Numbered from the stretch's first letter, positions 19,325 to 62,764 are shown. The stretch: DNA of 64,000 bases from Bacteroidota bacterium (GCA_029561305.1 JAKQJG010000128.1:9318-73317); one strand, 5' to 3'. The notes: generated from the letters alone by a model not told the origin. Numbers and translations are program-made.

Positions 19325-22153
19325 TCACAAAAACCGGCCTGTATGACTTTTCTTTTCCTTCTTCAGATCTTCCGGTTTGCCGGTAAATACAACATGACCA
19401 CCAGCATCGCCTGCTTCCGGACCAAGGTCAATTACCCAGTCTGCGCTCTTGATAACATCAGTATTGTGCTCAATTACCAGAATAGTATGCCCCTGCTCTA
19501 TTAATGCATTGAAAGAAGTCAATAATTTTTTTATATCATGAAAATGAAGCCCAGTAGTGGGTTCATCAAAGATGAAAAGAATTTGTCCGTTTGCCTTACC
19601 CTTACCGAGAAAAGAGGCCAGTTTCACCCTTTGTGCTTCTCCACCGGATAATGTATTGCTGGATTGCCCCAATTTTACATATCCAAGGCCAACATTACTT
19701 AATGGCTGTATCTTTCTTGCCACTTCAGGATCGCCTGCAAAAAAATCAATCGCCTCATCTACACTCATTTCCAATACATCATAAATGCTTTTCTCTTTGT
19801 AGGTAACTTCCAATACTTCCTCTTTGAATTTTTTTCCGCCGCAAACTTCACAGGTCAAATGCACATCTGCCAAAAACTGCATTTCCACTATTTGTTCACC
19901 CTCGCCACTGCAGGCATCACACCTTCCCCCTTCTACGTTAAAGGAAAAGTGCTTTGGCTGAAAGCCCCGTATCTTACTCAGCGGCTGCCTGCTAAACAGT
20001 TCCCTTATCTCATCATAGGCTTTTATGTAGGTAACGGGGTTGCTCCTCGAAGATTTGCCGATCGGGTTCTGGTCAACCATTTCAATTTGAGAAATAGCAT
20101 CTATATCACCTGTTATGGCTTTGTGAATGCCAGCTTTATCAACGCCCTCCCCTTTTATTTTCTGTAAAGCCGGGTATAAAATTTGTTTTACCAGGGTTGT
20201 TTTGCCACTGCCACTTACACCACTCACCACGCAAAGCAGACCCAATGGGAATTCGACTGAAATATTTTTTAAGTTGTTTTGTCTTGCGCCCTCTACTTTA
20301 ATACTTCGTTTCCATTTGCGCACATTTTTCGGCGGTTCTATTTTAAACACACCTGATAAGTATTTCCCAGTAAGACTTTTATCATTTGCAATCAGTTCAT
20401 CATAATTACCGGCGGCCACCACTTCACCGCCCAGGTGGCTGGCCAGTGGCCCCATGTCAATAATATGATCTGCCTCCCTCATCATCATCTCATCATGCTC
20501 CACTACTACAACAGTGTTGCCCAAATCCCTCAATTCTTTCAATACTGCAATTAACCGCTCTGTATCGCGGCTGTGCAGGCCAATACTTGGCTCATCTAAT
20601 ATATATAATGAATTGGTGAGATTACTGCCAAGACTCCTGGTTAGCTGGATACGCTGGCTTTCTCCACCACTCAATGAATTGGCCAGCCGGTTGAGCGTAA
20701 GATATCCCAAGCCAACATCCATCAATGTTTTAATCCGGTGATTTACTTCCAGCAGGATCCTTTTCGCCACCTGCCCGTCGTAAGCGGTTAATTCAAGTTT
20801 GCTAAACCATGTTTGCAGATCTCTTACTGGCATATTGCACAACTCCCCGATATGCTTTTCTGCTACCTTAACATACAGTGCTTCTTTGCGAAGGCGGTAA
20901 CCTTTGCAATCTGTACATTGTGTTCTGCCACGATACCGGCTTAGTAAAACCCGGTATTGTACTTTATATAAATTTTGTTCAACTTCTTTGAAGAAATCAT
21001 TTATCCCTAATACATTACTACGTCCTTCCCATAATTGCTGCAGTTGTTCTTCTGTAAGGTCAATAATGGGCTTATGAATAGGAAAACCAAAACTCTTTGC
21101 TCCTTTTATAAACTGTTCCCGCCACCAGCCCAGCTTTTCACCCTTCCAGGGAGCCACCGCTTCTTCGTACAGGCTTAACTGTTTGTTGGGGATGATCAGG
21201 TCTGCATCCAGGCCGAGTATTTGAGAAAAACCTTCGCAGGTGGGGCAGGCGCCAAAAGGATTATTAAACGAAAATAAATTGGGAACAGGCTCCTCAAACT
21301 GTATCCCATCCATTTCAAACTTATTACTGAAATGAAGCATTTGTTTCCCGTTCACTTCAACCAGCATTTCACCTTCACCTTCATAAAAAGCGGTACCAAC
21401 AGAATCTGAAATCCGGTGTATATCATCCTCATCAAACGCCTTTACAACAAGCCTGTCTACTAACAAAAACATTTTTTCAGGAAGAGACTTATCCGGCATC
21501 TCTAACAATTCTTCAATACGTGAAGGTTCTAAAGCCCCTCCTTTGGCCCCGTCCTGACGGGACGGGGAGGCCGTTCTTGAAAAACCCTTTTGCAGTAAAA
21601 TATTAAGCTCTTCCTTCGTATTACGCTTTGCATGTTTTTTGAAAGGCACAACAATCAGAACCCTGTCACCTTCGTTTAATTCCTTAATTGCTTTCACCAC
21701 ATCTGCCACATCATCTTTTTTTACCTCTCTTCCTGTTACGGGTGAAATAGTTTTCCCCACCCGTGCATATAGTAAGCGTAAGTAGTCGTAAATCTCCGTC
21801 ATACTGCCAACCGTGCTTCTTGGAGTACGGGTAATCACTTTTTGTTCTATAGCAATAGCAGGACACAAACCTTTGATATAATCCACATCCGGCTTATTCA
21901 TTCGTTGCATGAACTGCCGTGCATATGCACTCAGGCTTTCTGCATAACGGCGTTGTCCTTCTGCAAAAAGAGTATCGATCGTGAGCGAAGATTTGCCAGA
22001 ACCTGACACGCCTGTCACCACCACCAGCTTGTTTCGTGGTATCGTAACCGTTACATCCTTCAGGTTATGCACTCTTGCACCTTTTATCTGTATCCCGTCT
22101 GTTGCAGAAAGCGAAGATTTTGTAACAGTCTGTAATTTTTCCTTGGTTGCCAT
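19325..22153 (-). CDS. uvrA: Excinuclease ABC subunit A
   Basis: Two GVSGSGK Walker A motifs, two LSGGE signatures, Zn fingers; start MATKE at 22153 preferred to the ORF-track 22321. Confidence 0.97.
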   Translation of the reverse strand: MATKEKLQTVTKSSLSATDGIQIKGARVHNLKDVTVTIPRNKLVVVTGVSGSGKSSLTIDTLFAEGQRRYAESLSAYARQFMQRMNKPDVDYIKGLCPAIAIEQKVITRTPRSTVGSMTEIYDYLRLLYARVGKTISPVTGREVKKDDVADVVKAIKELNEGDRVLIVVPFKKHAKRNTKEELNILLQKGFSRTASPSRQDGAKGGALEPSRIEELLEMPDKSLPEKMFLLVDRLVVKAFDEDDIHRISDSVGTAFYEGEGEMLVEVNGKQMLHFSNKFEMDGIQFEEPVPNLFSFNNPFGACPTCEGFSQILGLDADLIIPNKQLSLYEEAVAPWKGEKLGWWREQFIKGAKSFGFPIHKPIIDLTEEQLQQLWEGRSNVLGINDFFKEVEQNLYKVQYRVLLSRYRGRTQCTDCKGYRLRKEALYVKVAEKHIGELCNMPVRDLQTWFSKLELTAYDGQVAKRILLEVNHRIKTLMDVGLGYLTLNRLANSLSGGESQRIQLTRSLGSNLTNSLYILDEPSIGLHSRDTERLIAVLKELRDLGNTVVVVEHDEMMMREADHIIDMGPLASHLGGEVVAAGNYDELIANDKSLTGKYLSGVFKIEPPKNVRKWKRSIKVEGARQNNLKNISVEFPLGLLCVVSGVSGSGKTTLVKQILYPALQKIKGEGVDKAGIHKAITGDIDAISQIEMVDQNPIGKSSRSNPVTYIKAYDEIRELFSRQPLSKIRGFQPKHFSFNVEGGRCDACSGEGEQIVEMQFLADVHLTCEVCGGKKFKEEVLEVTYKEKSIYDVLEMSVDEAIDFFAGDPEVARKIQPLSNVGLGYVKLGQSSNTLSGGEAQRVKLASFLGKGKANGQILFIFDEPTTGLHFHDIKKLLTSFNALIEQGHTILVIEHNTDVIKSADWVIDLGPEAGDAGGHVVFTGKPEDLKKEKKSHTGRFL
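21530..21572 (-). repeat. In-frame palindromic repeat inside uvrA (encodes ASPSRQDGAKGGAL)
   Basis: TAAAGCCCCTCCTT...GGGGAGGCC ends are identical to the metG copy at 49581-49614; internal hairpin CCCCGTCC-TGACG-GGACGGGG. Confidence 0.85.
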
Positions 22154-22465
22154 AGTTGTAAAGCTGCAAAAATATCTGATTAAAACGAGTAAAAATCGGA
22201 ATTCCGAATAAGGGTAACGTAGATCTACGATATCCACATTCGTAGTTGTTCTTAAATGCCGAGTACTAACGCCCGATTTTGCATTTTGTACCAAAAAATC
22301 GTTAAAAAAAAGTGTGCTCAATACAATTTCACTCTACTTTAGCACTACCAATATCCGAAACACTTTGAAAAGCCGTTAGCACATCAAGCGCTTCTACAGC
22401 TTCCTCATTTTGTCTCTTCTATTGGCACTTATCCAAATCTATAACAAACCAAAAACCGCCTAATT

Positions 22466-23047
22466 ATGAAGAGCCTGTCAAGCCTAACAGACCAACAATT
22501 GGTACACCAGTATGTAGAAGGAAACACCGAAGCATTGTCAACTTTAGTTTCCCGCTACAAAGACAAGATCTACACATCTATCTACCTGCTTGTTAAAGAC
22601 AAGTACCTGGCAGAAGATCTTTTCCAGGACGTTTTCATCCGTATCATTGATACACTCAATGGTGGCCGCTACACGGAAGAAGGAAAATTTTTACCATGGG
22701 CATTAAGGATCGCACACAATATGTGTGTTGACCATTTCCGCAAGGTAAAACGCAGTCCAAGTATCAAAACCAGCGATGACCGCGACATTTTTGAAGTGCT
22801 GAACTTTAACGAGGCCAGCCCAGAGCAAAAAATGATGCAAAATCAAAGCCATGATCGTGTTCGTAAAATGATCGACATGCTTCCCGAAGACCAGCGTGAA
22901 GTGATCATCCTGCGTCACTATGCAGACCTGAGCTTTAAAGAAATTGCTGAACTCACCAAGTGCAGCATCAACACCGCTTTGGGCAGAATGCGCTATGGGC
23001 TGATCAACATGCGTAAAATGATGGTTGAAAAACAAATTGCATTATAA
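22466..23047 (+). CDS. ECF sigma-70 factor
   Basis: AEDLFQDVF region 2, LPEDQREVIILRH..LSFKEIA region 4. Confidence 0.93.
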   Translation: MKSLSSLTDQQLVHQYVEGNTEALSTLVSRYKDKIYTSIYLLVKDKYLAEDLFQDVFIRIIDTLNGGRYTEEGKFLPWALRIAHNMCVDHFRKVKRSPSIKTSDDRDIFEVLNFNEASPEQKMMQNQSHDRVRKMIDMLPEDQREVIILRHYADLSFKEIAELTKCSINTALGRMRYGLINMRKMMVEKQIAL

Positions 23048-23114
23048 CTTAAAAAAAATATCAACAACAGATAAACTTTACATAAAAGATACACTGTAAC
23101 CCCTCAATAACACT

Positions 23115-23147
23115 AAACCCTCCAGATTGTTGGAGGGTTTATTTTTT
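23115..23147 (+). terminator. Intrinsic terminator after the ECF sigma gene
   Basis: AAACCCTCCA-GATTGT-TGGAGGGTTT followed by a T-run. Confidence 0.8.
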
Positions 23148-23325
23148 GTAATCAACCCTTCTGCGTTATATGATATTATTTTGCCTCTGCAACGGTATAC
23201 AACTGATTAACCATTTGTACAGGAATGATCTGATGGTTTAAACAACTTAAAGAAATTTTAGATGCATTTGATACTTTGTATATGCATCAACTATATATCA
23301 ATTTTTTTGGCTAGTAAAATAAAGA

Positions 23326-26300
23326 ATGAGACTTTATCCTTTTGTAGTATGTATAACGCTGGTCAATATTTTTTTCCCTTCTGTTAAAGGCCAGGTAGCC
23401 GGGCAAAGGAATATTCAATACACTTCTGCACCCTCCTCCCTGCAATCCAGCGTAATGGTAAAAGGATTTGGCCAATCTTATATACAAACGGGTTGTGAAT
23501 ATATAAACGGGGGTAATGATGACGGGAACTCATTCATTACAAAATATGACAGTTTGAACAACCCGGTGGTTTCAATTAAAGTAAGCCGCTATTTAATAAG
23601 GGGTATATGTGAGGATGCCAATAACAATCTTTATACTATAGGTATTGACGCTGGTACCACCTCCAAGGTATCCATGTTAAAGATAAGTTCCACTGGCAGT
23701 ATCGTTTGGAAGAAAACGATACCACAAACCGACAATTCAAATACTTTTATACCGGATTACTATCCTTACGATTTTTACAAAGCCGTTCTTTTATCCAATG
23801 GAAACATCCTTTTTAATTGCTTTGCAACTAACAGCAGGTCATTGATCATATTATCTCCTGACGGAACATTCATCAGATCTGCCGACCTGCCCGTTATTAT
23901 TGGCGACATTGAGCAAGGCTTTAATAACACCATTACTGCGGCCTACTTTGACAGGGTTGGCTTTTTTGGAGATAATGTGACAGTGTCTGGTGTTATTCAG
24001 TTTGATTATAATCTAAGGATCATAAGAAACAAAAAAATCACTACGCCTTCTTCTTTTTTCATTTATGGCGTTAGTAGTGATAAAAATGGTTTCTATTATT
24101 TCAACGGAGTGGATTCTTCAGCCAATCCGTCGGCTACAGCAGGTGGCATCATTATAAAATTAGATTCACAATTAAGTACCGCACCTGGCAATACCATTGC
24201 TTTTGTTGGCACCAGCAAAAAGAATTGTGGTCAAACCAACGATGGACGTTTTTTCAAAATAGCCGTGAGTGATCATTCAGTCACGGTAATGGAAAACCTG
24301 TTCTTTATTTCACTGCAGAATTCAATTATCTATAATAACAACAGCTATGTATCTGTTCCTGTATTGAATTTTGATACTGCACTGAATATGCAATGGAGTA
24401 AAAATATGTTCATCCGGCAAGACAGCTTAAACCCTGTCTTTATGGTGTCAGATGATATTGTTAAAGTAAAGGATAATATCATCTTTTCCATCAGGACGAA
24501 TTTGAACAGTGCATTTCTATATTACCTGGATACTGCTGGCAACACCGGAAACTGCTACCATTCCAATGCGGACTTTGCGGTGAGGAAATTGTCGAGTATC
24601 CTTACAGATACATCGTTCAACACACCGGTATCCTTTTATGTACCGGCGCCAACCTCCAATCTTGCCAATACCATAACAGCAGACCCGGCTATTATCACCC
24701 TTGAATGTGTGCCGCCCTTAAAACCCATCAGTAATTTTGTAACTGATTACAGCAATCCAAATAATGACACTTCAACCATTTGCCTGAACACCGCAATCAG
24801 ATTTATTGACAGTTCAAAAAATGATCCTGCTGTTTTCAGATGGATCTTTCCTCTGGAGGCCGATCTGTCAAATGCAGACAGCAGCTGCTTTCCAAACATT
24901 AGCAACGTGTTCTTTACATATGAAGGAATTTTCCCGGTGCAATTAATTGCCTGCAATAATTTTGGATGTGATACGGTCACTAAATATATCAACACCCGTT
25001 TACAGGCAACGCCACCTAATCTCGGCAATGACACAACGATTTGCCCCGGCGACAGTATTGCGTTAATATATATCAACCAGCCCAACAGCAACCATGAATT
25101 TACCGGCAGCAATGGATTCTTATCCTCACAGGATACCATTTATATAACAGAAAGCGGCACATACACTTGTACTGTTATTTCTGACTGTGGCGTATTGTCG
25201 GATGACATTACGGTAACTGTTTTGCAAGCACCCATGGCTGCATTTACAACCAATATACTTTGTGACGCTCTCAGTATATCCTTTACAAACAATTCCGAAA
25301 CTAACGGTAATACTAACCCTGTTTACAACTGGGATTTTTTCACTGCTTCAAATGTATTGCTTGGCAGCAGCGCTGATGAAAACCCGGTATTCACCTTCCC
25401 TTCTTTTGACAGTTTTCGGGTACAGCTATCTGTAAGCAGCAGGGTTGGTTGTGCAGTAAGTGACTCTTTTTCCTCCTTTCTCTATGTAAAGGCGAAGCCT
25501 GTAGCAGCATTTACTGCAACCACTGATTGCGGCAATTTTGAAGTAATTTTTAATGATAACAGTATAGTAGCAGCCGATACACTTCAATCCTGGCTTTGGG
25601 ATTTTGGTAATGGGCAGGGTTCCGCTGAAAGCAACCCGGTCTTTACTTTTTCAACTTATGGGCCGGCTCCGGTAACACTAACTACCACCAGTAGCCGCGG
25701 CTGCAGTGATACTGTAACACAAACTGTAGTAATAAAAGAAAAGCCTGTAGTAATACTCAATCAAACCTCTAATGTATGTGCGAACAATCCATTTTATATT
25801 ATTGCAACTGCCGGTATAGCGGATACAGCAATCAGCAACCTGCTTTGGTGGATAAACGACATACCTCAAGGTGAAAACAATGACTCACTGCAACTGATAA
25901 AACCTGCTGGAAATTATACCGTAAAAAACCTGGTAGTTTCCAGCGAGGGTTGTGCCAGCGATACCGCAATAAAAAATATTGTTGTAGAGGAACAACCGCA
26001 GGTAACTGCCCAGGTTGGCAACGGATGCGCAGGCACTCCCGTTAATTTTTCAGCACAAGTATTAAATGGTTCTGTCGCAACCCATCAATGGTATTTTGGA
26101 GATGGAGACAGCAGCACTGTTTTGTCAGGAACACATATGTATGTATTGCCTGGAAATTTTATAGTACGCTATATTGCAACCGGCGCCAATGGATGCAGCA
26201 GTACTGTTGATAGTGTGATCCTGTTTATTGAAAGTATTCCGGAGGCCGCATTTTCATTGAATACTACCTGTGCTGGTAAACCGCTTGAATTTTCTGCATT

Positions 26301-26979: not shown

Positions 26980-26991
26980 TAGTCCGTAAAA

Positions 26992-28938: not shown

Positions 28939-29074
28939 TAAGCGAAGTTAAACATGAGTCTTATTTGGTAAGGCAATGCTTCTTAAAAATGACCATGTAT
29001 TTTATAAAGCAAGTTGAACCGGAAATGCCTGGCTGTTTTTTTCGAAATTTTATCATCCAATGTTATCGCCACAC

Positions 29075-29105
29075 AAAAAAACGGGTTTAAAAACCCGTTT
29101 TCTTT
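29075..29105. terminator. Intrinsic terminator or attenuating hairpin between the DsbD-N gene and dsbD
   Basis: Perfect stem AAAACGGGTTT-AA-AAACCCGTTTT with flanking A/T tracts. Confidence 0.7.
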
Positions 29106-29119
29106 ATTGCCCGTCTCAT

Positions 29120-29575: not shown

Positions 29576-29658
29576 TCGTTTATTTTTTTTCCAATGGCAA
29601 ATTTACAAATACAACGCCGGGTATGCTGTAACATTGGTTACATCTTCACCATTTAACA

Positions 29659-30330: not shown

Positions 30331-30531
30331 AATAATGGACTCGTCCAACCTTACGCCAAGGGGCAGAGAGGACTTTGGAGAGTTAATATTTAAAAGTTAT
30401 AAATGATTGTAAGAGCAACTGCAAATTTTGTTTAGTATCCTGGCGTGAAAAGACAGGTATTCCTAACTTTTTCAAGGCCACCATGTGTAGAACTGAACAG
30501 CCATGCAGGCAACAAAAATACGACTACGGCA

Positions 30532-35301: not shown

Positions 35302-35305
35302 CAGG

Positions 35306-45025: not shown

Positions 45026-45058
45026 CACCCAGTCTGACCGTCCTGGTCTGACTGGGTG
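45026..45058 (+). repeat. REP palindrome, left
   Basis: CACCCAGTC-T-GACC-GTCCT-GGTC-T-GACTGGGTG. Confidence 0.9.
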
Positions 45059-45100
45059 TGTTGGAAACAGGAGATCATCTTTTCGAATACTTCAACTAAG

Positions 45101-45715
45101 TCAATCATCTTTTTCAAAAGATCCTAAAAAGTCTGTGTTAAAGCCTTTTTGTGTAAGACCACCAGACTGATAACCACAATACATGACGGCTAGTTCTTTA
45201 TTACATAAAGTTCCATTTCTTTTTCCGATATAATCACAGTATGATGAATATACCCAATGCTCAGGCTGTTTCACTAAACCAGCTAGTACCGGATTTTGGT
45301 GTATATAATCAAAACAACGGAAGCAATAATCCTGTAAACTATAGCGATGCTTTACAACCCAATCAGATTCTGCAACATTTTTCGCTTTGGTTTTTTGCCG
45401 GAATAAAGAACCCGTTCGTTTATACCGCTTATTGAAAACCCTTGCATACCCACTAAGCAATTTCCGGACTCCATTTGTGAGTTTTTCGATTTCAAGACCA
45501 CCCTGCTTCATTTTAGCACAACTTGCCTCGCCAGTGTACACCAGTAAGTGAAAGTGATTTGGCATCAGGCACCAAGCGATAATTTCAGTATTACTTTGAA
45601 CCTGCGTTCTTAGCATACGGAGAAAAATCAGGTAATCTTCATCACAACTAAAAATTCCCTGGCGATTGTTTCCCTGGTTGTAAATGTGATAGATATTATT
45701 GGGAAGAAACTTCAT
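45101..45715 (-). CDS. REP-associated tyrosine transposase (RAYT, HUH/Y1)
   Basis: YHIYNQGNN, CLMPNHFHLL (HUH), YIHQNPV (catalytic Tyr), WVYSSY. Confidence 0.92.
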   Translation of the reverse strand: MKFLPNNIYHIYNQGNNRQGIFSCDEDYLIFLRMLRTQVQSNTEIIAWCLMPNHFHLLVYTGEASCAKMKQGGLEIEKLTNGVRKLLSGYARVFNKRYKRTGSLFRQKTKAKNVAESDWVVKHRYSLQDYCFRCFDYIHQNPVLAGLVKQPEHWVYSSYCDYIGKRNGTLCNKELAVMYCGYQSGGLTQKGFNTDFLGSFEKDD

Positions 45716-45797
45716 TCGTTATCCAGTCAAACCATGACGGTTAGACTGAATTTGAAGATACGAACTTTAGCAGTATTTAGAATAGCGAAGAGCTTGC

Positions 45798-45836
45798 CCC
45801 GTCCCAGTCAGACCGGGACGGTCAGACTGGGACGGG
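45798..45836 (-). repeat. REP palindrome, right
   Basis: CCCGTCCCAGTC-A-GACC-GGGAC-GGTC-A-GACTGGGACGGG. Confidence 0.9.
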
Positions 45837-48437: not shown

Positions 48438-51029
48438 TTAACTGACACCACTTCCAGCATCAATCACCGATTCAGGGCTTACAAAATGCAATTTGCCGGT
48501 TTTATCTTCAGCCATCAATATCATGCCATTGCTTTCAATACCCCTCATTTTACGGGGAGCGAGGTTAGCCACTACAACAACCTGTTTACCAACAATAGTT
48601 TCGGGTTGGTAATGCATCGCAATACCGCTTACTACGGTCCTGGTTTCAAAACCCATGTCTATTTGCAGCTTTAATAACTTATCTGCTTTTTCTACTTTTC
48701 CGGCAGAAATAATTGTTCCGACTTTCAAATCGATCCTGGCAAAATCGTCGTAAACGATTTCGGGTTTTAAAGCCTCCCTGCCCTCCAAAGGAGGGTTCCT
48801 GGTGTCGGATAACTTCTTAGACTCCTCGACTTTCACAGGGACCAAGGTCCCTCCTTTGGAGGAATTTAGGGAGGCCCCCGCTTTTAATTTTTCTACTTGT
48901 GCCGCTATTTCTGCATCTTCAATTTTCCTGAATAGTAATTGTGGTTCTCTTAAGCTATAACCCACACTCAGCAAATTAATTTTACCAGCGTTATTCCAAT
49001 CCAGCATTTTATCCACCACTTTCATCATGTACAGCATTTTTTTGGCTGTGGTTGGTAAAAATGGATTGATAAGAATGGCGAGGTTGGCTGTTAACTGTAA
49101 GCAGAGATGCAAACAGTTGTCGATGCTTTTTTGAGCCTCCCTGCCCTCCAAAAGAGGGTTCTCGAAACCTGCAGTTGTTTGTTTCTTTTCGTTTAGCTTA
49201 GAAAGAATGGTATTTAAAACATAATCAGTCTTATTTAATACGTCATCGTTAGTAAACCGCAGTACTTCAAATCCAAACTTATTTAACTCTGCCGTCCTGA
49301 TCGCATCACTCAGTTTATTTTCCGGGATCTCATGTATCAATCCATCAACTTCAACAATAAGCTTTTGTGAAAGACAAACAAAATCTGCAATGTAGGTGCC
49401 AATGATATGTTGCCTTCTAAACTTAAAACTGTCCAGTTTTTTCCCTCTTACTATTTGCCATAATAAATCCTCCGCTTCTGTAGGATTCGACCTGTGCTCT
49501 TCAACAAATTTCTTCAGCAACCCATAAGTTACAGTATCCGCTGTTTGATATTCATAAGGACTGTTTGCTTTCGCAGAGTCTAAAGCCCCTCCTTCGGAGG
49601 GGTTTGGGGAGGCCACTTTCTTCGCTACAATCCATGGCTCTTTTTCCTGCATATACTTATTTCCCTTCCTGCTCAGGTCAATCACTTCAAACAAGGCATC
49701 TCTGAATTTATATTCCTCTAATAAACCTTCCACTTTCACTTTTGCATTTTCGATGTCTGCAATCAGCACTTTATCTTTTTCATCTAAAATATCTTCATGT
49801 AATTTTGGAACCTTGCCTCCGCATAGTTTATGCATCAATACCCATGTTCTATTCACAAAATTTCCAAAGATGCTTACCAGTTCACTGTTGTTCCTGTCCT
49901 GGAAATCCTTCCAGGTAAAATCATTATCCTTTGTCTCCGGTGCATTGGCACAGAGAACGTACCGGAGTACATCTTCACAACCTTCAAAGTCTTTGATGTA
50001 TTCGTTTACCCATACTGCCCAGTTGCGGCTGGTACTTACTTTTTCCCCTTCAATATTTAAAAACTCATTGGCAGGAACATTATCCGGCAAAGCAAATCCG
50101 CCATGTGCTTTCAACATCGCAGGGAAAATGATGCAATGAAAAACGATATTGTCTTTGCCAATAAAGTGAACCAGTTTTGTATCTTCTTTACACCAGTAGT
50201 CGGCCCATTTATCGGTCAGTTCCTTTGTTGCAGAGATATAACCGATCGGTGCGTCAAACCACACATACAATACTTTTCCTTCTGCATCCGGCAGCGGCAC
50301 TTTAATTCCCCAGTTGCTGTCCCTTGTCATGGCCCTGCTATGCAATCCGCTGTCGAGCCAGCTCTTGCATTGTCCATATACGTTGTTCTTCCATTCTTTG
50401 TGTCCTTCAATTATCCATTCTTTCAGCCACGGTTCATAATTCTGTAGTGGAAAATACCAATGCGTTGTTTTTTTCTTTACCGGTACCGCATCACTCAACG
50501 CACTTTTGGGATTGATCAGTTGCTCCGGCGATAGACTTGTTCCGCATTTTTCACACTGGTCGCCATAGGCATTTGGGTTGGCACAAACCGGGCAGGTGCC
50601 GGTGATATAACGATCGGCCAAAAACGTGTTTGTCTTTTCATCAAAATACTGCTCCGTTTCTTTCTCCTCAAACAAACCATCATCATACAGTTTCTTAAAA
50701 AATGCCGATGCTGTATCGTGATGTACTTTATTGGAGGTACGGGAATAGATATCAAACGAGATACCCATTTGCTCCATACTTTCTTTGATGATGGCATGAT
50801 AACGGTCAACCACCTGTTGCGGTGTGATGCCTTCCTTCATGGCACGGATGGTAATGGGCACACCATGCTCATCGCTGCCACCGATAAATTTCACGTCTTT
50901 CTTTTGTGCTCTTAAATAACGTACATAAATATCCGCAGGCAAATAACATCCTGCCAGGTGGCCAATATGTACCGGGCCATTGGCATAGGGAAGCGCTGCT
51001 GTAACTAAATATCTGGATGGATGGTTCAT
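48438..51029 (-). CDS. metG: Methionine--tRNA ligase carrying an in-frame DUF559 insert and repeat-derived linker
   Basis: [12 protein letters not shown], Zn knuckle, KVSTS (KMSKS), C-terminal Trbp111-like domain [15 protein letters not shown]; start MNHPS at 51029. Confidence 0.97.
48771..48876. repeat. In-frame inverted repeat doublet in the metG linker (miniature element)
   Basis: Plus strand GCCTCCCTGCCCTCCAAAGGAGGG (48772-48795) and minus strand GCCTCCCTAAATTCCTCCAAAGGAGGG (48849-48875), 53-bp spacer. Confidence 0.88.
49134..49614 (-). mobile_element. Repeat-flanked DUF559 (Vsr-like endonuclease) cassette inserted in frame in metG
   Basis: [30 protein letters not shown]...KLIVEVDG..H...D..RT..L...GF.VLRFTN between inverted repeats at 49581-49614 and 49134-49161. 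Confidence 0.85.
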
Positions 51030-51166
51030 TTTTTTGAATCTGTCTTTTGTGCTACTATTAAACATCGTTCTGTCACTTCCCGAAAGCATTCGGGATACTG
51101 GTACAACTACAGGCAACAAAACAACGGCTGCAAAAATACCTTAATTGAGCCCAACGAACAAACCAC

Positions 51167-53012: not shown

Positions 53013-53038
53013 TATTATAAAAAGTTTTCATCCTGTTG

Positions 53039-53587: not shown

Positions 53588-53702
53588 GAATTGATGGAGG
53601 GGTTAAAATTGTCCCTTTGTAATATAAACTGGTTTGGGTAAAAAAATGGTTGGGTAAATGTGAAAAATATATTTTAGGCGAAAAACATGCCAACTGTATT
53701 CC

Positions 53703-53736
53703 AAAAAAATACCTCCCAGGTAATACGAGGGAGGTA
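53703..53736 (-). terminator. Intrinsic terminator after bglX
   Basis: TACCTCCC/GGGAGGTA stem followed by T7 on the minus strand. Confidence 0.75.
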
Positions 53737-53792
53737 AAGAATTTTGCGACGAATTACACCAATGAACACGAATGGTATGCACTTAAAGCATT

Positions 53793-56123: not shown

Positions 56124-56143
56124 TACAAGCGATTTAAATTTTC

Positions 56144-56164
56144 ATTGCGTTAATATGACACAAT
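56144..56164. promoter_or_regulatory. Candidate NrtR-family operator
   Basis: ATTGCGT-TAATATG-ACACAAT: 21-bp imperfect palindrome with a GT-N7-AC core, between the divergent bglX and NrtR-like genes. Confidence 0.65.
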
Positions 56165-56231
56165 GATAAAACTTTTATATTTGCTTTGCAAGTTTTTAGT
56201 GTATTTTTTTTGCAACCCCTTAATTTAGAGT

Positions 56232-57005
56232 ATGAGTTTTAAAGAAGAAATAACCCAGCATTTCAAAAAAGGCCAGGAGCTTTACCTGCGTCATATTTCA
56301 GTTGACTGCGTCATTTTTGGATTTCATCAAAACAAATTGAATGTGTTGTTGCTCCAGTCAAAGTACGCTGGTGACTGGGCACTGCCCGGTGGTTTTATTT
56401 TAAAGCAAGAACATATGGATGATGCTGCCAACCGTATACTAAAAAACCGGACAGGTCTGCACAATATTTACTTGCAGCAGTTCCATGTATTTAGCGAACC
56501 GAGCCGCTCCACAAAATTGATGAACCAGCAGTTTTTAAAAAATGCCGGCGTGGTAATGGAAGAAAGCTGGATGTTTGAACGCTTTATTACAGTGGGTTAC
56601 ACCGCCCTGGTTGATTTTAGCAAAGCTCAATTAATCCCGGATAGTTTTTCTGTGGCTTGTGAATGGCACAACGTAAATTCTTTGCCTGGCATGATACTGG
56701 ACCACCGGGAAATATTAAATACGGCGTTGCTACAGTTGCAAACCAATTTAAATTACCATCCTGTTGGCTATAACCTGCTGCCAGAAAAATTCACCATGCC
56801 GGAATTACAGAAGTTGTATGAAACCATCCTGAACCGGCCGCTTGACAGAAGAAATTTTCAAAGAAAAATAACCGGGACAAAAATTTTGAAAAAGCTGGAT
56901 GAAACTAAAAAGGGCGTGGCACATAAAGCTCCTAATTACTATAAGTTTGATCTAAAGAATTATAAAAAAGCTTTGAAAGGCGGCATGGGTTTTCAATTGT
57001 CTTAA
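56232..57005 (+). CDS. NrtR-family regulator (NUDIX + winged HTH)
   Basis: SVDCVIFGF, WALPGGF, LPEKFTMPELQKLYE.IL...LDRRNFQRKI. Confidence 0.92.
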   Translation: MSFKEEITQHFKKGQELYLRHISVDCVIFGFHQNKLNVLLLQSKYAGDWALPGGFILKQEHMDDAANRILKNRTGLHNIYLQQFHVFSEPSRSTKLMNQQFLKNAGVVMEESWMFERFITVGYTALVDFSKAQLIPDSFSVACEWHNVNSLPGMILDHREILNTALLQLQTNLNYHPVGYNLLPEKFTMPELQKLYETILNRPLDRRNFQRKITGTKILKKLDETKKGVAHKAPNYYKFDLKNYKKALKGGMGFQLS

Positions 57006-57315
57006 ACATTCACGTATCTCCCTGGTATTTTATAGCCAGACCAGGAGCAATTAAATAATGTTTCAAAAAAAGAACGCTGCAAACGCCGCCTCTGGCCTGA
57101 CTATATCCTACCCAGACCTGCCTGATACACTAAGCAGGATCATATTTGAAGCGAAAAATATGGTTTTGTACATATTCTGGAAGGAAAAGGAAAGGATTTT
57201 CCACATACTGGAGAATTCTGAACAGGCCATTTTCCTGAAACCCTTTACCAGTAAGGGTTTGGGTGGTTTGGCACTATCTATGAAAACTAACTATCAAACA
57301 AAACCACCCCAAATT

Positions 57316-57729
57316 ATGAAAACAATTATCACCCTAATCGCAGCAGGTTTCATCCTCAACACAAGTAATGTAACCGCACAGTCAACAGCGTCTATCAACA
57401 ATGACGGGATCACAGCAGCAGAAGGTAAAGTACCATCACTTATCATCAGCGAAGTAAACTTCAAAGCTTTAAGGAACGGGTACAATGTAACCTGGGAAAC
57501 ACAAAACCAGTTTAATGTTGCAAGCTTTGAATTACAGATCAGCGAAAACAACAAAAACTTCAGTACGGTAAAGAGAAGAACCTGCGGTCCTGAAAAGCGT
57601 TCAAAATACCAGGTACAGTTGAGCAACACGCTTATTTTAGCTAACCCGGTTTTTTACAGGCTTAAATGGGTAACAATGGATGGACAGGTTAACTATACAG
57701 AAAGCAAGCAGTTTAGAAATGATTTATAA
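57316..57729 (+). CDS. Small secreted protein with an Fn3-like beta-sandwich
   Basis: Signal peptide from ATG 57316; VTWETQNQFNVASFELQIS...FYRLKWVTMDGQVNY motif like the domain that usually precedes T9SS-A tails. Confidence 0.7.
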   Translation: MKTIITLIAAGFILNTSNVTAQSTASINNDGITAAEGKVPSLIISEVNFKALRNGYNVTWETQNQFNVASFELQISENNKNFSTVKRRTCGPEKRSKYQVQLSNTLILANPVFYRLKWVTMDGQVNYTESKQFRNDL

Positions 57730-57839
57730 GAGCGTTTGAGTGTTATCAATAAATACAGGTTGCCGGCATATTGCCGGCATCTCTGTTTGTAACAAATTAT
57801 TTGATCTCAAGGTTGTATTTTTAATATCAAATCAGCCTG

Positions 57840-58862
57840 ATGAAAAGAAAAGATTTTCTTTCTGCCTTACTCCCTGCAGCGGCTTTGTTGCAACCGTTCA
57901 CCTCACTGGCAGGTACACACGAAGATGAAAATGCTGTGGCAGTTATTCCGCCTTATTTAAAAAAAGGAGACTTGATCGGTATCAGTAGTCCGGCTGGTTA
58001 TATTACGCTGGAAGATGTGCAGCCAGCCATACAAAAATTGAAAGAATGGGGATTTAATGTAAAAGTTGGCAGCACGGTTGGTAAAAAGGATTTTACGTTT
58101 GGCGGTACCGATGAAGAACGGGCAAAAGACTTTCAGCAAATGCTGGATGACAAAATAATCAAAGCCATATTGTGCGCAAGAGGCGGATACGGTATTGTAA
58201 GGATCATTGATACAATTGATTTCACTAAATTTATACAAAAGCCCAAATGGATACTTGGCTTTAGCGATGCCACTGTACTTCATAGCCACATAAATAAGAA
58301 CTTTGGCATTGCATCTATCCACTCAAAAATGTGTAACAGTTTTCCTGCTGACTGGTTTATTGCAGATGCTGTACAAAGAGAAACGATCAACAGCATCAGG
58401 AAATGCATCAGCGGCGAAAAAATGCAGTATGAATTTCCCGCCAACACAAAAAATAAAACGGGAATTGCCGAAGCTGTATTGACTGGCGGAAATCTAAAAA
58501 CCATTGAAAGCCTGGCAGGAAGCAAAAGTGATATCAATACAACAGGCAAGATCCTGTTTGTGGAAGATACCGGTGAATATTTATATAGCATTGACCGGAT
58601 GTTCTGGAACCTTAAACGAAGTGGCAAGCTGGACAAATTAAAGGGCCTGATCATCGGCGGTTTTAAAAATAAAAAAGATGATGAAGGAGATGAGTTTGGT
58701 AAAACGCTGGAAGATATTGTACTGGAGAAAACAAAGGAATTTAAATATCCAGTGTGTTTTGATTTTCCTGTGGGGCACCAGAAAAATAATGTTGCATTGA
58801 AGTGTGGTGTACGGCACAGGTTGAAAGTAACAACAGATGGTTGCTTATTGAAGGAAATATAA
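57840..58862 (+). CDS. LD-carboxypeptidase (S66) with export signal
   Basis: MKRKDFL Tat-like leader; GFSD (Ser), FVED (Glu), VGH (His). Confidence 0.92.
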   Translation: MKRKDFLSALLPAAALLQPFTSLAGTHEDENAVAVIPPYLKKGDLIGISSPAGYITLEDVQPAIQKLKEWGFNVKVGSTVGKKDFTFGGTDEERAKDFQQMLDDKIIKAILCARGGYGIVRIIDTIDFTKFIQKPKWILGFSDATVLHSHINKNFGIASIHSKMCNSFPADWFIADAVQRETINSIRKCISGEKMQYEFPANTKNKTGIAEAVLTGGNLKTIESLAGSKSDINTTGKILFVEDTGEYLYSIDRMFWNLKRSGKLDKLKGLIIGGFKNKKDDEGDEFGKTLEDIVLEKTKEFKYPVCFDFPVGHQKNNVALKCGVRHRLKVTTDGCLLKEI

Positions 58863-58867
58863 ATTTG

Positions 58868-58875
58868 TATATTTG
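58868..58875 (+). promoter_or_regulatory. -7 promoter box for the TA module
   Basis: TATATTTG, 14 bp upstream of ATG 58890. Confidence 0.55.
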
Positions 58876-58889
58876 ATAAAATCTTTTGT

Positions 58890-59108
58890 ATGGTTGTAGT
58901 TGAAAAAATAAGCAAGGAAAAAATCACTATATCCTTTTCCGGGGTAGTAGGGAGGAAGGGGCTGAACAATATAAAACGATATATAGAATTTCTTGAAGCA
59001 AGCGGCATCCCTAAAAAGAAAGAGGTATCTCCGGCTATTATCAAGAAACTATCAGACGAAATAAATAAATCTGCTGCTGAGAAATTCAAAAAAGCAAAAG
59101 GATTTTAA
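58890..59108 (+). CDS. Putative antitoxin
   Basis: 72 aa; stop overlaps the PIN start (TAATG). Confidence 0.7.
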   Translation: MVVVEKISKEKITISFSGVVGRKGLNNIKRYIEFLEASGIPKKKEVSPAIIKKLSDEINKSAAEKFKKAKGF

Positions 59109-59548
59109 TGATTATTATTACGGATGCCAATATTATCCTTAGTGGTATCATTAACCCATACGGAATCATTGCTTCCTTGCTGATCCAGGAACACCCGGGC
59201 ATAAATTTCATGACTCCTGAATATGCCTTGTCAGAAATCAATCTTCATAAGAAGAGAATTTGCACTAAACAAAAAATTAAACCGGTGGAATTTGATATCC
59301 TGCTGGATAAATTTTTAACCAATATAACGCTGGCCGGCAATGATACTGTGACGGAAGACATCTACAGGCAAGCAGAAGAGATCACTTCTCCAATAGACAC
59401 TAATGACACCTGGTATATTGCTTTTTGCATTGCCTTAGATGCATTATTGTGGACAGGGGATTTGAAACTGCATTATGCACTCCGCAAACAACAATTTTAT
59501 AAAAGCATCATTACTGCTGAATTTAATTCAATTCTAAAAGGCATATGA
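59108..59548 (+). CDS. PIN-domain (VapC-like) protein
   Basis: IITDANII, E, DTNDTWYIA, LWTGD acidic PIN residues. Confidence 0.88.
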   Translation: MIIITDANIILSGIINPYGIIASLLIQEHPGINFMTPEYALSEINLHKKRICTKQKIKPVEFDILLDKFLTNITLAGNDTVTEDIYRQAEEITSPIDTNDTWYIAFCIALDALLWTGDLKLHYALRKQQFYKSIITAEFNSILKGI

Positions 59549-60456
59549 TAACCATTCCGCCATACCTAAAAAAAGGCGCTACCATCGGCATCACCTGCCC
59601 TGCAGGCTATATGCCAATAGAAAAAGCACAAACCTGTATTGATACTTTACAACAGTGGGGTTTTACTGTAATGGTGGGCAAAACACTCGGCAGTAACTCC
59701 AACAATTATTTTTCCGGAACAGATGAAGAACGCCTGTTTGAATTACAGGCGATGCTTGACAGTGAGGAGATCAATGCCATTCTTTGCGGCCGTGGTGGTT
59801 ATGGGTTAAGCCGTATTGTTGACAAACTGGATTTTACAAAATTTAAAAAGAAACCGAAATGGGTGATCGGCTATAGTGATATCACTGTGCTGCATTGCCA
59901 CCTGCATACAAAATTAAAAATCGCTTCCCTGCACGCTCCGATGGCTGCAGCATTTAATGATGGAGTAAAAGGAAATGTGTTTATTGAATCCCTGCACAAA
60001 GCCATTACAGGTAAAAAAGCCAACTATAAATCCGGTGTGTATTCATTTAACAAAGCTGGCAAGGCGCAGGGTGTATTGGTGGGTGGAAATTTAGCCTTAC
60101 TGGTAAACATGATTGGCACTAAATCGGAATTGACAACAAAAAACAAGATCCTTTTCATTGAAGATATTGGTGAATATATCTACAGTACCGACCGTATGAT
60201 GATGCAGTTAAAACGCAGCGGAAAATTAGACAATCTTGCCGGACTGGTAGTTGGCAATTTTACTGACACAAAAGACACTGAACGGCCATTTGGGGAAACT
60301 GTTTATCATGCCATATATAACTTAGTAAAGGAGTATGAGTACCCGGTTTGTTTCAATTTTCCTGTAGGTCATTCTAAAGAAAACTATGCATTAAAAACCG
60401 GTATTCACTATCAGCTGAGCGTCACCAGCAAATCAGTATCCCTCATTGAAAAATGA
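59545..60456 (+). CDS. LD-carboxypeptidase (S66), cytoplasmic paralog
   Basis: GYSD, FIED, VGH triad; no leader peptide. Confidence 0.92.
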   Translation: MITIPPYLKKGATIGITCPAGYMPIEKAQTCIDTLQQWGFTVMVGKTLGSNSNNYFSGTDEERLFELQAMLDSEEINAILCGRGGYGLSRIVDKLDFTKFKKKPKWVIGYSDITVLHCHLHTKLKIASLHAPMAAAFNDGVKGNVFIESLHKAITGKKANYKSGVYSFNKAGKAQGVLVGGNLALLVNMIGTKSELTTKNKILFIEDIGEYIYSTDRMMMQLKRSGKLDNLAGLVVGNFTDTKDTERPFGETVYHAIYNLVKEYEYPVCFNFPVGHSKENYALKTGIHYQLSVTSKSVSLIEK

Positions 60457-60518
60457 CAACAATTTGGTAACATCTAATTATTGGGAAGCGCTTTTTTATC
60501 ATTATAACTTTGTGAAAA

Positions 60519-61898
60519 ATGAACAAACTTTCACAACCGGAGTTGTGGGAAAAAATTCAAAACTTCAATTTCGATGACCAAAATTCAAGTTACCCCTTCT
60601 CCAAAAAATTAGCAACCGAAAACAACTGGTCAGATCCTTTCACTCAAAAAGCCATTGCAGAATACAAGAAATTTATTTTTCTCTGCTGCATCTCTCCCAC
60701 TGGCGCTTCTCCTTCCGAAACTGTAGACAAAGTATGGCACCTGCACCTGACTTACACTAAGAATTATTGGGAAGAATTTTGCCGGAAAACGCTGCAACAG
60801 GATATTCATCACCACCCAAGCAAAGGCGGCACTGCGGAAAAAACAAAACACCGCAACTGGTACAGCGAAACACTCAGCATGTATGAAACTGTTTTCAAAA
60901 GCAAGCCTCCGGTTGACATATGGCCGCCGGATAACGAAGCAGCACCGGAAGCAATAACCGACGCCATCTATGACAAAAAATTTTTAACGCAGTTTGTTCT
61001 GATTTTCTTGTCGGCAGTGTTACTGCTCATCTTTATATTAAATCCTTATCAGTCAAAGGGCCCTGAATTTTTAGAGTTTTACTGGATGGTGGCAGTTGGC
61101 GGTATCATCATTACTTTAATGCTTCAAAAAAACAAAGATGCCCGCCTGCAGGAAATCGTTTTTGCTAACCTGCCGGCCGGTTTCAATCTTTATCAAATCA
61201 CCCATTTTGTGCAGGGTCCGCACCGCTGCTATCAAACGGCCCTGGTTGATCTGTTGAAAAGAGGCATCATCGAAACTACCGGAAACGGGTACACTTTGAT
61301 AGAACTTCCTTCTTCTTTACACGAAGCAGAAAAGAATCCATTGCTGGCATCGTTGATCAGTAATTACCACAACGGTAAAAAATTCAATTACCTCGAAGGC
61401 TATGCACAGATGGATTTCGATTCAGTACAGCATCCTGCTTTTGAAAAACTGCTGCAGCTGTCAAAGAAAGTGGATCACCCCAAACTGATCATACCTGGTA
61501 TTGTGTTGCTGACAGGAATTATAAGACTGATGCAGGGAATAGCTAATAATAAACCGGTTGACTACCTGGTGGTCACTATGCTGGTTTTTACAATGCTGTC
61601 ACTTGCGATACTGCAGGCATACTCCTATACCTACACGGTAAAAAAAGGAGTGCAGGATTTTTGGGAGCGGCAAAACGCAGATGGAAAAGGCGATGATGTG
61701 CTGGGAAATTTCTCCATATTAGGTACGGCGGCCATAGCTGGTTTTGCAGAGTACAGCTTTCTTACCAGTGACTTTTCATTTTATGAGCCTCAAAATAAAA
61801 GATGGACCGGGGGAGAATACAGCAGTTCTTCTTCCTGCGGCAGCGGTGATGGGGGTGGAGGATGTGGTGGCGGCGGCTGTGGTGGATGCGGTAGTTAA
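60519..61898 (+). CDS. TIGR04222-domain membrane protein with N-terminal GRDP-like domain and Gly/Cys tail
   Basis: EYKKF..L..P...VDKVWHLH...T..YW..FC domain; TM segments; tail SSSSCGSGDGGGGCGGGGCGGCGS; TAACTTTG -7 box at 60505-60512. Confidence 0.82.
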   Translation: MNKLSQPELWEKIQNFNFDDQNSSYPFSKKLATENNWSDPFTQKAIAEYKKFIFLCCISPTGASPSETVDKVWHLHLTYTKNYWEEFCRKTLQQDIHHHPSKGGTAEKTKHRNWYSETLSMYETVFKSKPPVDIWPPDNEAAPEAITDAIYDKKFLTQFVLIFLSAVLLLIFILNPYQSKGPEFLEFYWMVAVGGIIITLMLQKNKDARLQEIVFANLPAGFNLYQITHFVQGPHRCYQTALVDLLKRGIIETTGNGYTLIELPSSLHEAEKNPLLASLISNYHNGKKFNYLEGYAQMDFDSVQHPAFEKLLQLSKKVDHPKLIIPGIVLLTGIIRLMQGIANNKPVDYLVVTMLVFTMLSLAILQAYSYTYTVKKGVQDFWERQNADGKGDDVLGNFSILGTAAIAGFAEYSFLTSDFSFYEPQNKRWTGGEYSSSSSCGSGDGGGGCGGGGCGGCGS

Positions 61899-61900
61899 TA

Positions 61901-62764
61901 TCAACGCAGCAACAAACTATCCAGCTTTAATTTAAACAACGGATAGTCATTCAAATTACGATGCGTTCCTCCTTCAATGGTCACAAACTCATCGGTAACT
62001 TTTAAAACTTCTTTCAATCTACTGGCATTACGGTAAGGGATCACCCCATCATCTGTGCCATGAAAAATAGTGATGGGATACCTGATGCCACTTAAAAATT
62101 CGTACGTGGGGATTTTATAACTCGCCATCCGGCTGTTGGGGTAAATGGGTGCATAGCAATTGTACAGTGAAGGGATGCTGTAGTAAGGTGTTTCTAAGAT
62201 CAGCCGCTTTGCTTTACCGGCTGCTGCGGTATAAGCAGCGATGCCTGTTCCTAAAGATTTGCCATAAATAACAATGCTGTCGGCCGCATATTTTGAAAGG
62301 GCCAGTTTATACAATTGCGTTGCCTGTTCATACAGTATTTTTTCTGTTCTGTTACCTACGCTTTTTCCAAAACCCGGGAAGTCCCCCATCCATACCTCAT
62401 AGCCATGTTTGGTAAAATTATTTACAAACCTTACGTAACGTTTAATATTACCCCTGTTGCCGTGAAAGTAAAGAACCACACCTTTTCGTACGGAATCTTT
62501 TGGAAAAAACTGTACCAGGTTAACGGTATCTGTGTCATTCATGGGCAGGTCAACCTCTTTAAAAGGGATATCAAATTGCCAGGGCACAGTTCTTTCAATG
62601 GCTGTGGGGTGAAATAAAAATTTTTCCTGCAGGTAAAACAAGGCGATGCCAATAGCAGAGTACAGCAATACAATTACTTTGATCCAGCGAAACAGTTTTC
62701 GGCCTAACCCTCTTTCTCCCTTCCCTAAAGGAAGGGAGCGGTGCTTCAAATCTTTATTAATCAT
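61901..62764 (-). CDS. Alpha/beta hydrolase (ABHD13/17-like)
   Basis: YFHGN, GKSLG nucleophile, FHGTDD, GGTH. Confidence 0.9.
   Translation of the reverse strand: MINKDLKHRSLPLGKGERGLGRKLFRWIKVIVLLYSAIGIALFYLQEKFLFHPTAIERTVPWQFDIPFKEVDLPMNDTDTVNLVQFFPKDSVRKGVVLYFHGNRGNIKRYVRFVNNFTKHGYEVWMGDFPGFGKSVGNRTEKILYEQATQLYKLALSKYAADSIVIYGKSLGTGIAAYTAAAGKAKRLILETPYYSIPSLYNCYAPIYPNSRMASYKIPTYEFLSGIRYPITIFHGTDDGVIPYRNASRLKEVLKVTDEFVTIEGGTHRNLNDYPLFKLKLDSLLLR
62701..62739. repeat. In-frame palindromic repeat in the hydrolase N-terminus (encodes SLPLGKGERGLG)
   Basis: GGCCTAACCC-TCTTT-CTCCCTTCC-CTAAA-GGAAGGGAG-C; same tail-plus-hairpin layout as the metG repeats. Confidence 0.7.

Follow-up and report, generated by a model that had tools for sequence, protein, structure and literature searches.

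A repeat family in housekeeping genes of a Bacteroidota genome as the probable terminal motif of DUF559-nuclease cassettes and their miniature derivatives

Background

A 64,000-nt stretch of a Bacteroidota genome (contig C278:9318-73317 of genome G000, referred to here as the window) contains a short G/C-rich repeat that lies in frame in the unrelated genes uvrA and metG and overlies the start of an alpha/beta-hydrolase gene, which raises the question of what kind of element this repeat belongs to and how it persists in conserved genes. We propose that it forms the terminal motif of small selfish DNA elements, a family composed of cassettes encoding a DUF559 nuclease and of their miniature derivatives, which persist by being translated, and we estimate the probability of this reading at roughly two in three. 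The assembly of G000 comprises 4.83 Mb in 443 contigs with 41.7% G+C, and related loci point to Ferruginibacter / Chitinophagaceae, known from metagenome-assembled genomes.

Results and discussion

Repeat copies in the window

The six copies listed in the initial annotation of the window were all recovered, namely uvrA 21530-21572, the metG arms at 48772, 48849, 49135 and 49581-49613, and the hydrolase copy at 62701-62739. A search with nhmmer found no further copy in the window, the strict repeat pattern had no occurrence in 100 shuffles of the window, and the search of the window against Rfam returned no family at threshold. Five of the copies are located inside two long open frames on the minus strand, metG (48438-51119, 893 aa) and uvrA (19325-22321, 998 aa), which run through them and read ASP(N)PS.GGA, ASLNSSKGG or ASPS..GAKGGA in one orientation of the repeat and NPLLEGREA or NPPLEGREA in the other, bearing out the annotated use of a consistent frame per orientation in these two genes. 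The arms in the window are 24 and 27 nt long, in agreement with the annotated length differences in multiples of three, but arms in the genus also vary by 1-2 nt, and we therefore regard this point as incidental. Counted as elements, the window contains one cassette and one miniature element in metG, one solo end in uvrA, and one partial element over the hydrolase start (Table 1).

The DUF559 cassette in metG

The copies at 49135 and 49613 bracket exactly a complete DUF559 domain, in which the motifs FRRQH, ADF and EVDG..H are intact, as they are across the 13 genomes compared below. Comparison with the PDB yielded 3HRL (E 5.5e-22) and a weak, remote match to 3R3P, the Vsr-like homing endonuclease I-Bth0305I (E 0.038). 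The cassette divides the anticodon-binding domain of methionyl-tRNA synthetase (MetRS) a few residues after its conserved KEPW motif, with the junctions V/ASP...REA/Q, and in comparison with the enzyme from P. abyssi (1RQG) the insert of 167 aa stands in place of a 7-residue inter-helix loop (chain residues 482-488). The closest MetRS relatives (89-90% identity) are without residues 504-658, having a loop of 5-9 residues there, and also miss the miniature element in the linker; the empty cassette site is found in metG of the genomes G006, G009 and G020, and at least 16 Chitinophagaceae genomes carry a cassette there. The nuclease-free miniature, which as single-stranded DNA folds into one long hairpin (dG -26.9 kcal/mol, z -4.9), is missing from all relatives aligned.

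Analysis of DUF559 genes beyond metG reveals the same association. All four of them in G000 (the metG copy, C111, C2, and one split over the contig ends C332/C412) are flanked by such ends, and each cassette has its own end-sequence variant. Among 31 genomes of the genus, the repeats are present in 13 of the 17 with an intact DUF559 gene and in 0/14 of those without it (Fisher p = 2e-5, with no phylogenetic correction), and the reversed-pattern control returned no matches in the genus genomes. Of the 51 DUF559 domains in the genus, about 40 belong to open frames of more than 300 aa. Judged by eye from their sequence motifs, the host proteins include LeuRS and MetRS (two sites each), MetH, and IcmF-like and Acs-like proteins, and DUF559 frames also read through into ArgB, TrpG and a nucleotidyltransferase.

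The main rival of our reading is that the ends spread independently, as an ordinary family resembling transposable elements of the miniature inverted-repeat kind (MITEs) or repetitive extragenic palindromes (REPs), mobilized by some other enzyme (e.g. a Y1 transposase of the window similar to REP-associated tyrosine transposases (RAYT), or the transposase of an insertion sequence (IS) supplied in trans) or through replication and repair; DUF559 would then be a passenger, or a parasite homing into repeat pairs, with the miniature as the empty and the cassette as the filled target. Such a course of events would fit the excess of solo and miniature ends over cassettes, the presence of a Y1-transposase-like gene with flanking hairpins at 45101-45715, the metG genes of G011 and L074, where a complete miniature precedes the DUF559 part, an arrangement suggestive of the gene's arrival next to or within a repeat pair, and the lack of a mobile-element link for the similar TMECO repeats of E. 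coli (Holder et al., PMC4666352). We nevertheless consider it unlikely, as the hairpins of the RAYT-like gene itself differ in sequence and their core occurs once in the genome, the repeats are missing from every genus genome that lacks DUF559, the end variants go with the individual DUF559 cassette that they flank, and the universal frame of the ends is the DUF559 frame, as expected if the miniatures derive from cassettes.

Two of the DUF559 cassettes outside metG deserve mention. The contigs C332:1-535 and C412:1-435 end inside the same DUF559 gene and overlap in sequence, i.e. the repeated nuclease gene breaks the assembly, and this cassette directly adjoins the ATG of a nucleotidyltransferase, from which no stop codon separates it. 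A related cassette (48% identity, 340-aa frame) is present in the cultured member of Chitinophagaceae Cnuella takakiae RG1-1 (L081, NZ_MTFE01000010.1:790193-798678).

Architecture of the ends

Each end is built of three parts, a C-rich block a, block b as the mirror image of a, and the complementary block b', which is G-rich. The part lying upstream of the hairpin mirrors the 5' stem arm rather than repeating it directly, which gives the order Hoogsteen-pyrimidine, loop, Watson-Crick pyrimidine, loop, purine (class IV), or pyrimidine, purine, mirrored purine on the opposite strand (class II). The mirror match exceeds the direct match in 26 of 31 ends of G000, and among 61 DUF559-flanking ends, taken from about 40 cassettes in many genomes, it is better in 47 and worse in 0. 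Moreover, at least 10 distinct non-symmetric stem variants possess perfectly covarying mirror blocks, e.g. TCCCCC/CCCCCT, CCCCTCTC/CTCTCCCC, and TCTCCCCC/CCCCCTCT. By its block design an end is predicted to be one that can form a hairpin and, when single-stranded, an intrastrand triplex of the kind proposed for BoxC/PIT/TMECO repeats. One candidate triplex sequence is GCCTCCCCAAACCCCTCCGAAGGAGGGG, together with its complement.

The ends are sharply delimited on the outside (GCC...GGC). In 12 strict copies from G000 the outer boundary is exactly GCCTCCC, beyond which the sequences are unrelated, and on the inner side they have the common subterminal sequence GGAGGGG-CTTTAGAACC. Two inverted ends of slightly different type enclose either a DUF559 gene (about 480-600 nt) or about 50-130 nt in the miniature form, and solo ends occur as well. 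Pairs of A2 and A1 ends are found in metG (twice), polA, C219 and C243, and pairs of A and B ends make up the intergenic units.

Fixed reading frame of the intragenic copies

In order to tally the frames, we took the 49 intragenic matches that lie in open reading frames (ORFs) of 200 aa or more; their host proteins form 21 unrelated clusters. All 21 host families use the same frame for a given orientation, which reads (A/T/S)S(P/L)xPS.GG or ASLPSKGG forward, and ..PP.EG(R/F)(E/G)EA or, in the variant with a TAAAT loop, PS.GGDLGEA in reverse. One could argue that this pattern results from chance or from survivorship of a G/C-rich low-complexity motif with few stops, as 2-3 frames are free of stops in the core of each end (the conserved cTTTAGa alone closes one) and essential genes retain only non-disruptive insertions. 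However, with at least two open frames the null probability is at most 1/2 per site, hence p <= 5e-7 over the 21 families, and this tally already contradicts such an origin; neither shuffled sequence nor the reversed-pattern control contains the motif, whose copies moreover have sharp boundaries and subterminal sequence in common, and we find the explanation hardly credible.

The canonical frame is the one in which the DUF559 ORF runs through both ends. In free-standing cassettes small changes create stops, e.g. GCT TAG instead of GCT TTA G in C2. In our interpretation, the fixed frame stems from cassettes that were expressed by read-through, and selection for linkers rich in Pro, Gly, Ser and Glu has reinforced it.

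Genomic distribution

An iterated nhmmer profile search of G000 identified 36 ends, 21 of A-type and 15 of B-type. Inside genes we found 11/36, in MetRS (4), PolA (2), UvrA, RumA, MiaB, AroA and RtcB; 3/36 lie over gene 5' ends, and 22/36 are intergenic, mostly as A...B units of about 180 nt. If two weaker partner ends are included, there are 13 intragenic ends, which belong to 8 insertions spread over 7 housekeeping genes. A crude estimate puts the coding fraction of this genome at 0.88, so the copies are under-represented in genes with respect to random insertion; copies in genes are far commoner than has been reported for REP or TMECO. In 12 relatives from the genus, all 93 matches to the strict pattern were classified as intragenic (48/93, with 50 or more open codons to either side), located at a gene 5' edge (9/93) or 3' edge (4/93), or intergenic (32/93).

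Outside the window, these counts contradict the annotated generalization that all copies are coding, with none found in intergenic DNA: one third to two thirds of the copies are intergenic, and about a third to a half are inside housekeeping genes, where they are predicted to be translated in one fixed frame. The annotation had also regarded mostly intergenic placement or random frames as signs of a coincidental pattern; many copies are indeed intergenic, but the frames are non-random.

At least 10 of the 15 B-type ends in G000 point at a long ORF 0-6 codons away, often from a few nucleotides before its ATG (e.g. C237:14272-14305, C117:15617-15651, C263:4955-4989). Bacteroidota mRNAs are without Shine-Dalgarno sequences (PMC6847099), and a G/C-rich hairpin near start codons could affect translation initiation in this phylum.

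Insertion sites in host genes

Relatives with empty sites were found for seven host-gene sites (both in metG, and those in uvrA, rumA, miaB, aroA and rtcB), and every insertion site falls into a length-variable, indel-rich loop or an inter-domain linker. The annotated idea that the element creates new peptide loops in variable surface regions of housekeeping proteins agrees with in-frame insertions at variable sites that are empty in relatives, with "surface" deduced from sequence variability; the AlphaFold2 model of MetRS, built from a 15-sequence alignment, was unusable (mean predicted local distance difference test score 39.5).

The occupied sites differ between genomes. In the nearest one, G020, the versions in uvrA, rumA and polA are decayed or different, and in rumA, miaB and metG the genomes G022 and G011 possess variants of their own at identical codon positions. 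At the miaB site (G000 C183:1180-1323; L046 in G022; L047 in G011) the end variants CCCTCC, CCCCTCC and CCCCCC occupy the same codon position and the G000 copy is in the opposite orientation, a comparison of sequences suggestive of recurrent insertion at this site or of in-situ inversion. In polA (G000 C299:8782-8942) two inverted ends are located in the PolA linker around the host motif QMDLFGN, and because this motif is conserved even in genomes without the repeat, these ends resemble two solo insertions or, alternatively, a pair that has taken up host sequence.

Conservation and history of the metG cassette

We compared 13 genomes with the cassette at the same metG site. The synonymous-codon identity is 0.82 and 0.91 for the cassette ends, 0.56 for the DUF559 core and 0.52-0.55 for MetRS, and the amino-acid identity is 0.83 for the DUF559 core vs 0.79 for MetRS. 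The DUF559 core is therefore under purifying selection, as judged from its high amino-acid identity relative to the synonymous-codon identity, and in the ends, which are conserved at synonymous sites, the constraint acts on DNA rather than on the peptide. As the third position of the last Ala codon is free, the boundary is fixed at ...GGC.

The selection on the nuclease domain could also mean that the inserts are adaptations of the host, i.e. that the peptides and DUF559 were recruited for a function in MetRS, UvrA and other proteins, such as nucleic-acid binding near the tRNA anticodon, and that their similarity is due to domain shuffling. The retention of the MetRS DUF559 in at least 16 genomes and its location just past the KEPW motif of the anticodon-binding domain are in line with this idea, which however is difficult to reconcile with the fact that the closest relatives do without the insert, that the same module is found in at least 21 unrelated proteins and in intergenic DNA, that the conservation of the ends concerns DNA and not the peptide, and that the inserts are distributed patchily within one genus. 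Altogether, we regard such recruitment as quite improbable.

Cassettes at the same site are shallow: the path from G000 to L064 is 0.23 for the cassette vs 1.18 for the host, i.e. about 5 times shorter, the metG classes being 0.94 substitutions per site apart, and the pairwise identities of cassette and host correlate with r = 0.26. From these sequence comparisons we infer that at least one transfer probably took place between metG classes, followed by mostly vertical descent rather than rampant homing.

With respect to metG itself, the genus has two MetRS classes (about 68% vs 90% identity to the window enzyme) separated by an internal branch of 0.94 substitutions per site, which suggests xenolog replacement of the gene in part of the genus. 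In addition, G000 possesses a 409-aa open frame (C7:1768-2976) that matches MetRS in its anticodon-binding and C-terminal tRNA-binding parts with 33-34% identity and may be a truncated MetRS-like paralog.

Proposed life cycle and points that weigh against it

If the repeat is the terminal motif of DUF559 elements, the nuclease would recognize, cut or nick the folded ends, and break-induced copying would then carry the element into cognate sites in a homing-like manner and, more rarely, into new sites by ectopic capture. Internal deletions would yield the miniatures and solo ends. An intragenic cassette would borrow the transcription and translation of its host and would never be spliced out, and intragenic copies would survive only in the frame that gives linker peptides rich in Pro, Gly, Ser and Glu. 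Intergenic copies, often situated just upstream of start codons, would be free of this frame filter.

Several points weigh against this reading. To our knowledge, neither a nuclease activity nor a cut site nor a target-site duplication is known for DUF559. A nuclease of the PD-(D/E)XK fold alone is incapable of strand transfer, and insertion at new sites therefore needs host repair. No target-site duplication or target motif was seen at about 20 junctions, the left flanks of which are merely A-rich, although the nearest empty alleles are at least 10-15% diverged, so duplications of 1-2 nt could escape notice. The four DUF559 copies of G000 are mutually 43-47% identical and thus give no sign of recent copy-and-paste of whole cassettes, and the A-type ends (about 21) far exceed the single A-type cassette, i.e. 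the ends might spread without the nuclease. The polA pair does not fit a single inserted unit. The best tree of the cassettes holds the same split of 5 against 8 genomes as the tree of their hosts, with weak support (61/86), and since the two are topologically compatible, the case for transfer comes from branch depth only. Finally, translation of the inserts is predicted from open frames.

Copies in uvrA and in the hydrolase gene

In the uvrA copy the middle C-block is replaced by a unique nested palindrome with an 8-bp stem (CCCCGTCC..GGACGGGG). The copy is missing in G006, G009, G022 and G011, and at the same site in uvrA of G020 (L036) there is a different palindrome, AGCTGCC-AAT-GGCAGCT. 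The cores of the inner uvrA palindrome and of the RAYT hairpin occur once each in the genome, and a link between them is neither supported nor excluded.

The partial element in the hydrolase gene is similar to the intergenic elements C237 and C117 in their right halves. Related hydrolases begin with MKRKxFFRW, and their homology to the window protein extends from its residue 26 onward. As there is no ATG, GTG or TTG between the element and the transmembrane helix and the only usable starts (Table 1) are within the element, translation most likely begins inside it, so that the end is most likely read as a new N-terminal tail of 21-25 residues. This copy, which overlies the start and is in frame, belongs to a different subtype (B-type) and would be coding only as an N-terminal extension.

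Table 1. Repeat-derived features of the window; positions are counted from its first nucleotide
Feature	Position	Strand	Details
Solo A2-type end in uvrA	21530..21572	-	reads ASPSRQDGAKGGALEP; nhmmer E 0.006, partial match
Miniature element without nuclease	48772..48875	-	104 nt; metG linker before the C-terminal tRNA-binding domain
A1-type end of the metG miniature	48772..48798	+	GCCTCCC-TG-CCCTCC-AAA-GGAGGG-TTC; a-block 6/6 mirror of stem arm
A2-like end of the metG miniature	48849..48875	-	GCCTCCC-TAAAT-TCCTCC-AAA-GGAGGG
DUF559 cassette in metG	49135..49613	-	479 nt, in frame; residues 504-658 of the 893-aa frame
A1-type end of the metG cassette	49135..49161	+	synonymous-codon identity 0.91
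DUF559 (PF04480) Vsr-like PD-(D/E)XK nuclease domain	49194..49511	-	Pfam E 2.3e-33; MetRS residues 537-642
A2-type end of the metG cassette	49587..49613	-	GCCTCCCC-AAA-CCCCTCC-GAA-GGAGGGG, read ASPNPSEGG; 7/7 mirror; synonymous-codon identity 0.82
Partial B-type element in the alpha/beta-hydrolase gene	62702..62829	-	about 128 nt over the ancestral start codon; from alignment with the nearest relative G020
B-type triplex/hairpin end in the hydrolase gene	62707..62741	-	CTCCCTTCC-TTTA-GGGAAGGGAG-AAA-GAGGGTTAGGC; nhmmer E 6e-6
In-frame ATG inside the hydrolase element, likely new start	62762..62764	-	alternative GTG 62774-62776

A separate repeat-flanked gene is located at 45026-45836. Its 204-aa ORF (45101-45715, minus strand) has a weak match to the IS200-like Y1 transposase family (E 3e-4, below the Pfam cut-off), and the flanking hairpins, CACCCAGTCTGACCGTCCTGGTCTGACTGGGTG and CCCGTCCCAGTCAGACCGGGACGG..., are unrelated to the family studied here.

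Comparison with known systems

The analogy with Rickettsia palindromic elements (RPEs; Ogata et al. 2000, 2002, as summarized in PMC10969869), drawn in the initial annotation, holds, as there are in-frame insertions in unrelated housekeeping genes and empty sites in relatives. According to that summary, RPEs too are a short palindromic family found in frame in unrelated housekeeping genes and with intergenic copies; the peptides that they add sit at sites compatible with the fold, to which the indel-rich loops and linkers occupied here may be comparable. With respect to size (about 100-150 nt, foldable as a long palindrome), the 104-nt metG miniature falls within the RPE range and the intergenic units have about 180 nt. 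The likeness is drawn from the description of RPEs and not from their sequence; the family described here differs in its phylum (Bacteroidota, Chitinophagaceae), in the mirror-plus-inverted, triplex-type G/C blocks of its ends, and in the DUF559 nuclease gene of its full-length members, whereas the account of RPEs in the MITE review (PMC10969869) names no partner enzyme.

The design of the ends is closest to BoxC/PIT/TMECO repeats (Holder et al. 2015, PMC4666352; see also Hoyne et al. 2000, as cited there). TMECO are class II intrastrand triplex motifs, present in E. coli K-12 in 23 copies that are always intergenic, more often upstream of ORFs; five form inverted pairs of two types, and neither a function nor a link to mobile elements has been found (PMC4666352). 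Both families share the three-block order C - G - G(mirror) with loops of 3-6 nt, the inverted pairs of two types, and the tendency to lie upstream of ORFs. Our B-type and 9-nt-block subtypes (CCCCTCTCC-TCAA-GGAGAGGGG-TT-GGGGTGAGG) nearly match TMECO type A (CCCTCTCCC-TTGA-GGGAGAGGG-TTA-GGGTGAGGG), including the T in the third block. On the other hand, the TMECO consensus (CCCTCNCCC-N3-6-GGGNGAGGG-N3-GGGNGAGGG) had 0 matches in the genome, strict or relaxed, the closest subtype differing in block register; the blocks here are mostly of 6-7 nt, and in contrast to the exclusively intergenic TMECO, a considerable part of the ends (11/36 in G000, 48/93 in the relatives) is intragenic, and the ends bracket a nuclease gene.

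As in REP/REPIN-RAYT systems, hairpin repeats form inverted doublets, a candidate partner gene is flanked by the same repeats, and the repeats are found only where the partner gene is present (here DUF559, 13/17 vs 0/14). In contrast to these systems, the partner is a PD-(D/E)XK protein (DUF559) with several diverged copies per genome, and many copies, including those with the partner gene, are inside coding sequence and in frame. We rejected a REPIN/RAYT assignment, as the flanked gene is DUF559 and not an HUH Y1 (IS200-like) transposase and the RAYT-like gene of the window has unrelated hairpins. A classical MITE or IS was rejected as well: inverted ends are present, but no junction shows a target-site duplication, and the parent element encodes no transposase.

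Vsr-like nucleases are also known as homing endonucleases of the EDxHD family, exemplified by I-Bth0305I (PMC3239194) and by genes associated with split inteins (PMC2677866). The metG cassette resembles homing endonuclease genes in that a Vsr-fold nuclease occupies the same conserved position of an essential gene in diverged alleles, here in two metG classes, and its distribution is patchy; by branch depth the history of the insert also appears shallower than that of the host, the topologies of the two being compatible. It differs in having no Hint domain, Ala...Ala junctions, a size of about 160 aa and no intron signature, and its ends are repeated elsewhere in the genome. An intein was rejected on these grounds, as Pfam finds only DUF559 in the metG insert, the junctions are wrong and the insert is too short; having no signature of an intein (Hint) or an intron, the insert would be expected to stay in the protein.

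In the literature we found no description of DUF559 cassettes with such ends, nor of triplex repeats in coding sequence. It is conceivable, and we advance this as a tentative proposal that we would not yet bet on, that DUF559 with its triplex/hairpin ends constitutes a previously undescribed class of bacterial selfish elements, which would invade conserved genes in frame without a transposase, intron or intein, remain unspliced in the host protein, and shed miniature and solo ends as a source of new loops, linkers, N-termini and 5' leaders; the BoxC/PIT/TMECO repeats would then be its orphaned ends.

Implications

Inserts of this kind inflate the lengths of aminoacyl-tRNA synthetases and repair proteins, break assemblies at the repeated nuclease genes, and could be mis-annotated as fusion proteins or pseudogenes. 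If the association with DUF559 is causal, it would provide the BoxC/PIT/triplex repeats, the origin of which has been open since the 1990s, with a partner enzyme and a life cycle, and it would represent a third way, besides introns and inteins, for a nuclease-driven element to reside inside essential genes, namely by being translated. Irrespective of the mechanism, one repeat family has reshaped housekeeping proteins of at least 21 families in a single genus, at loops, linkers and start codons.

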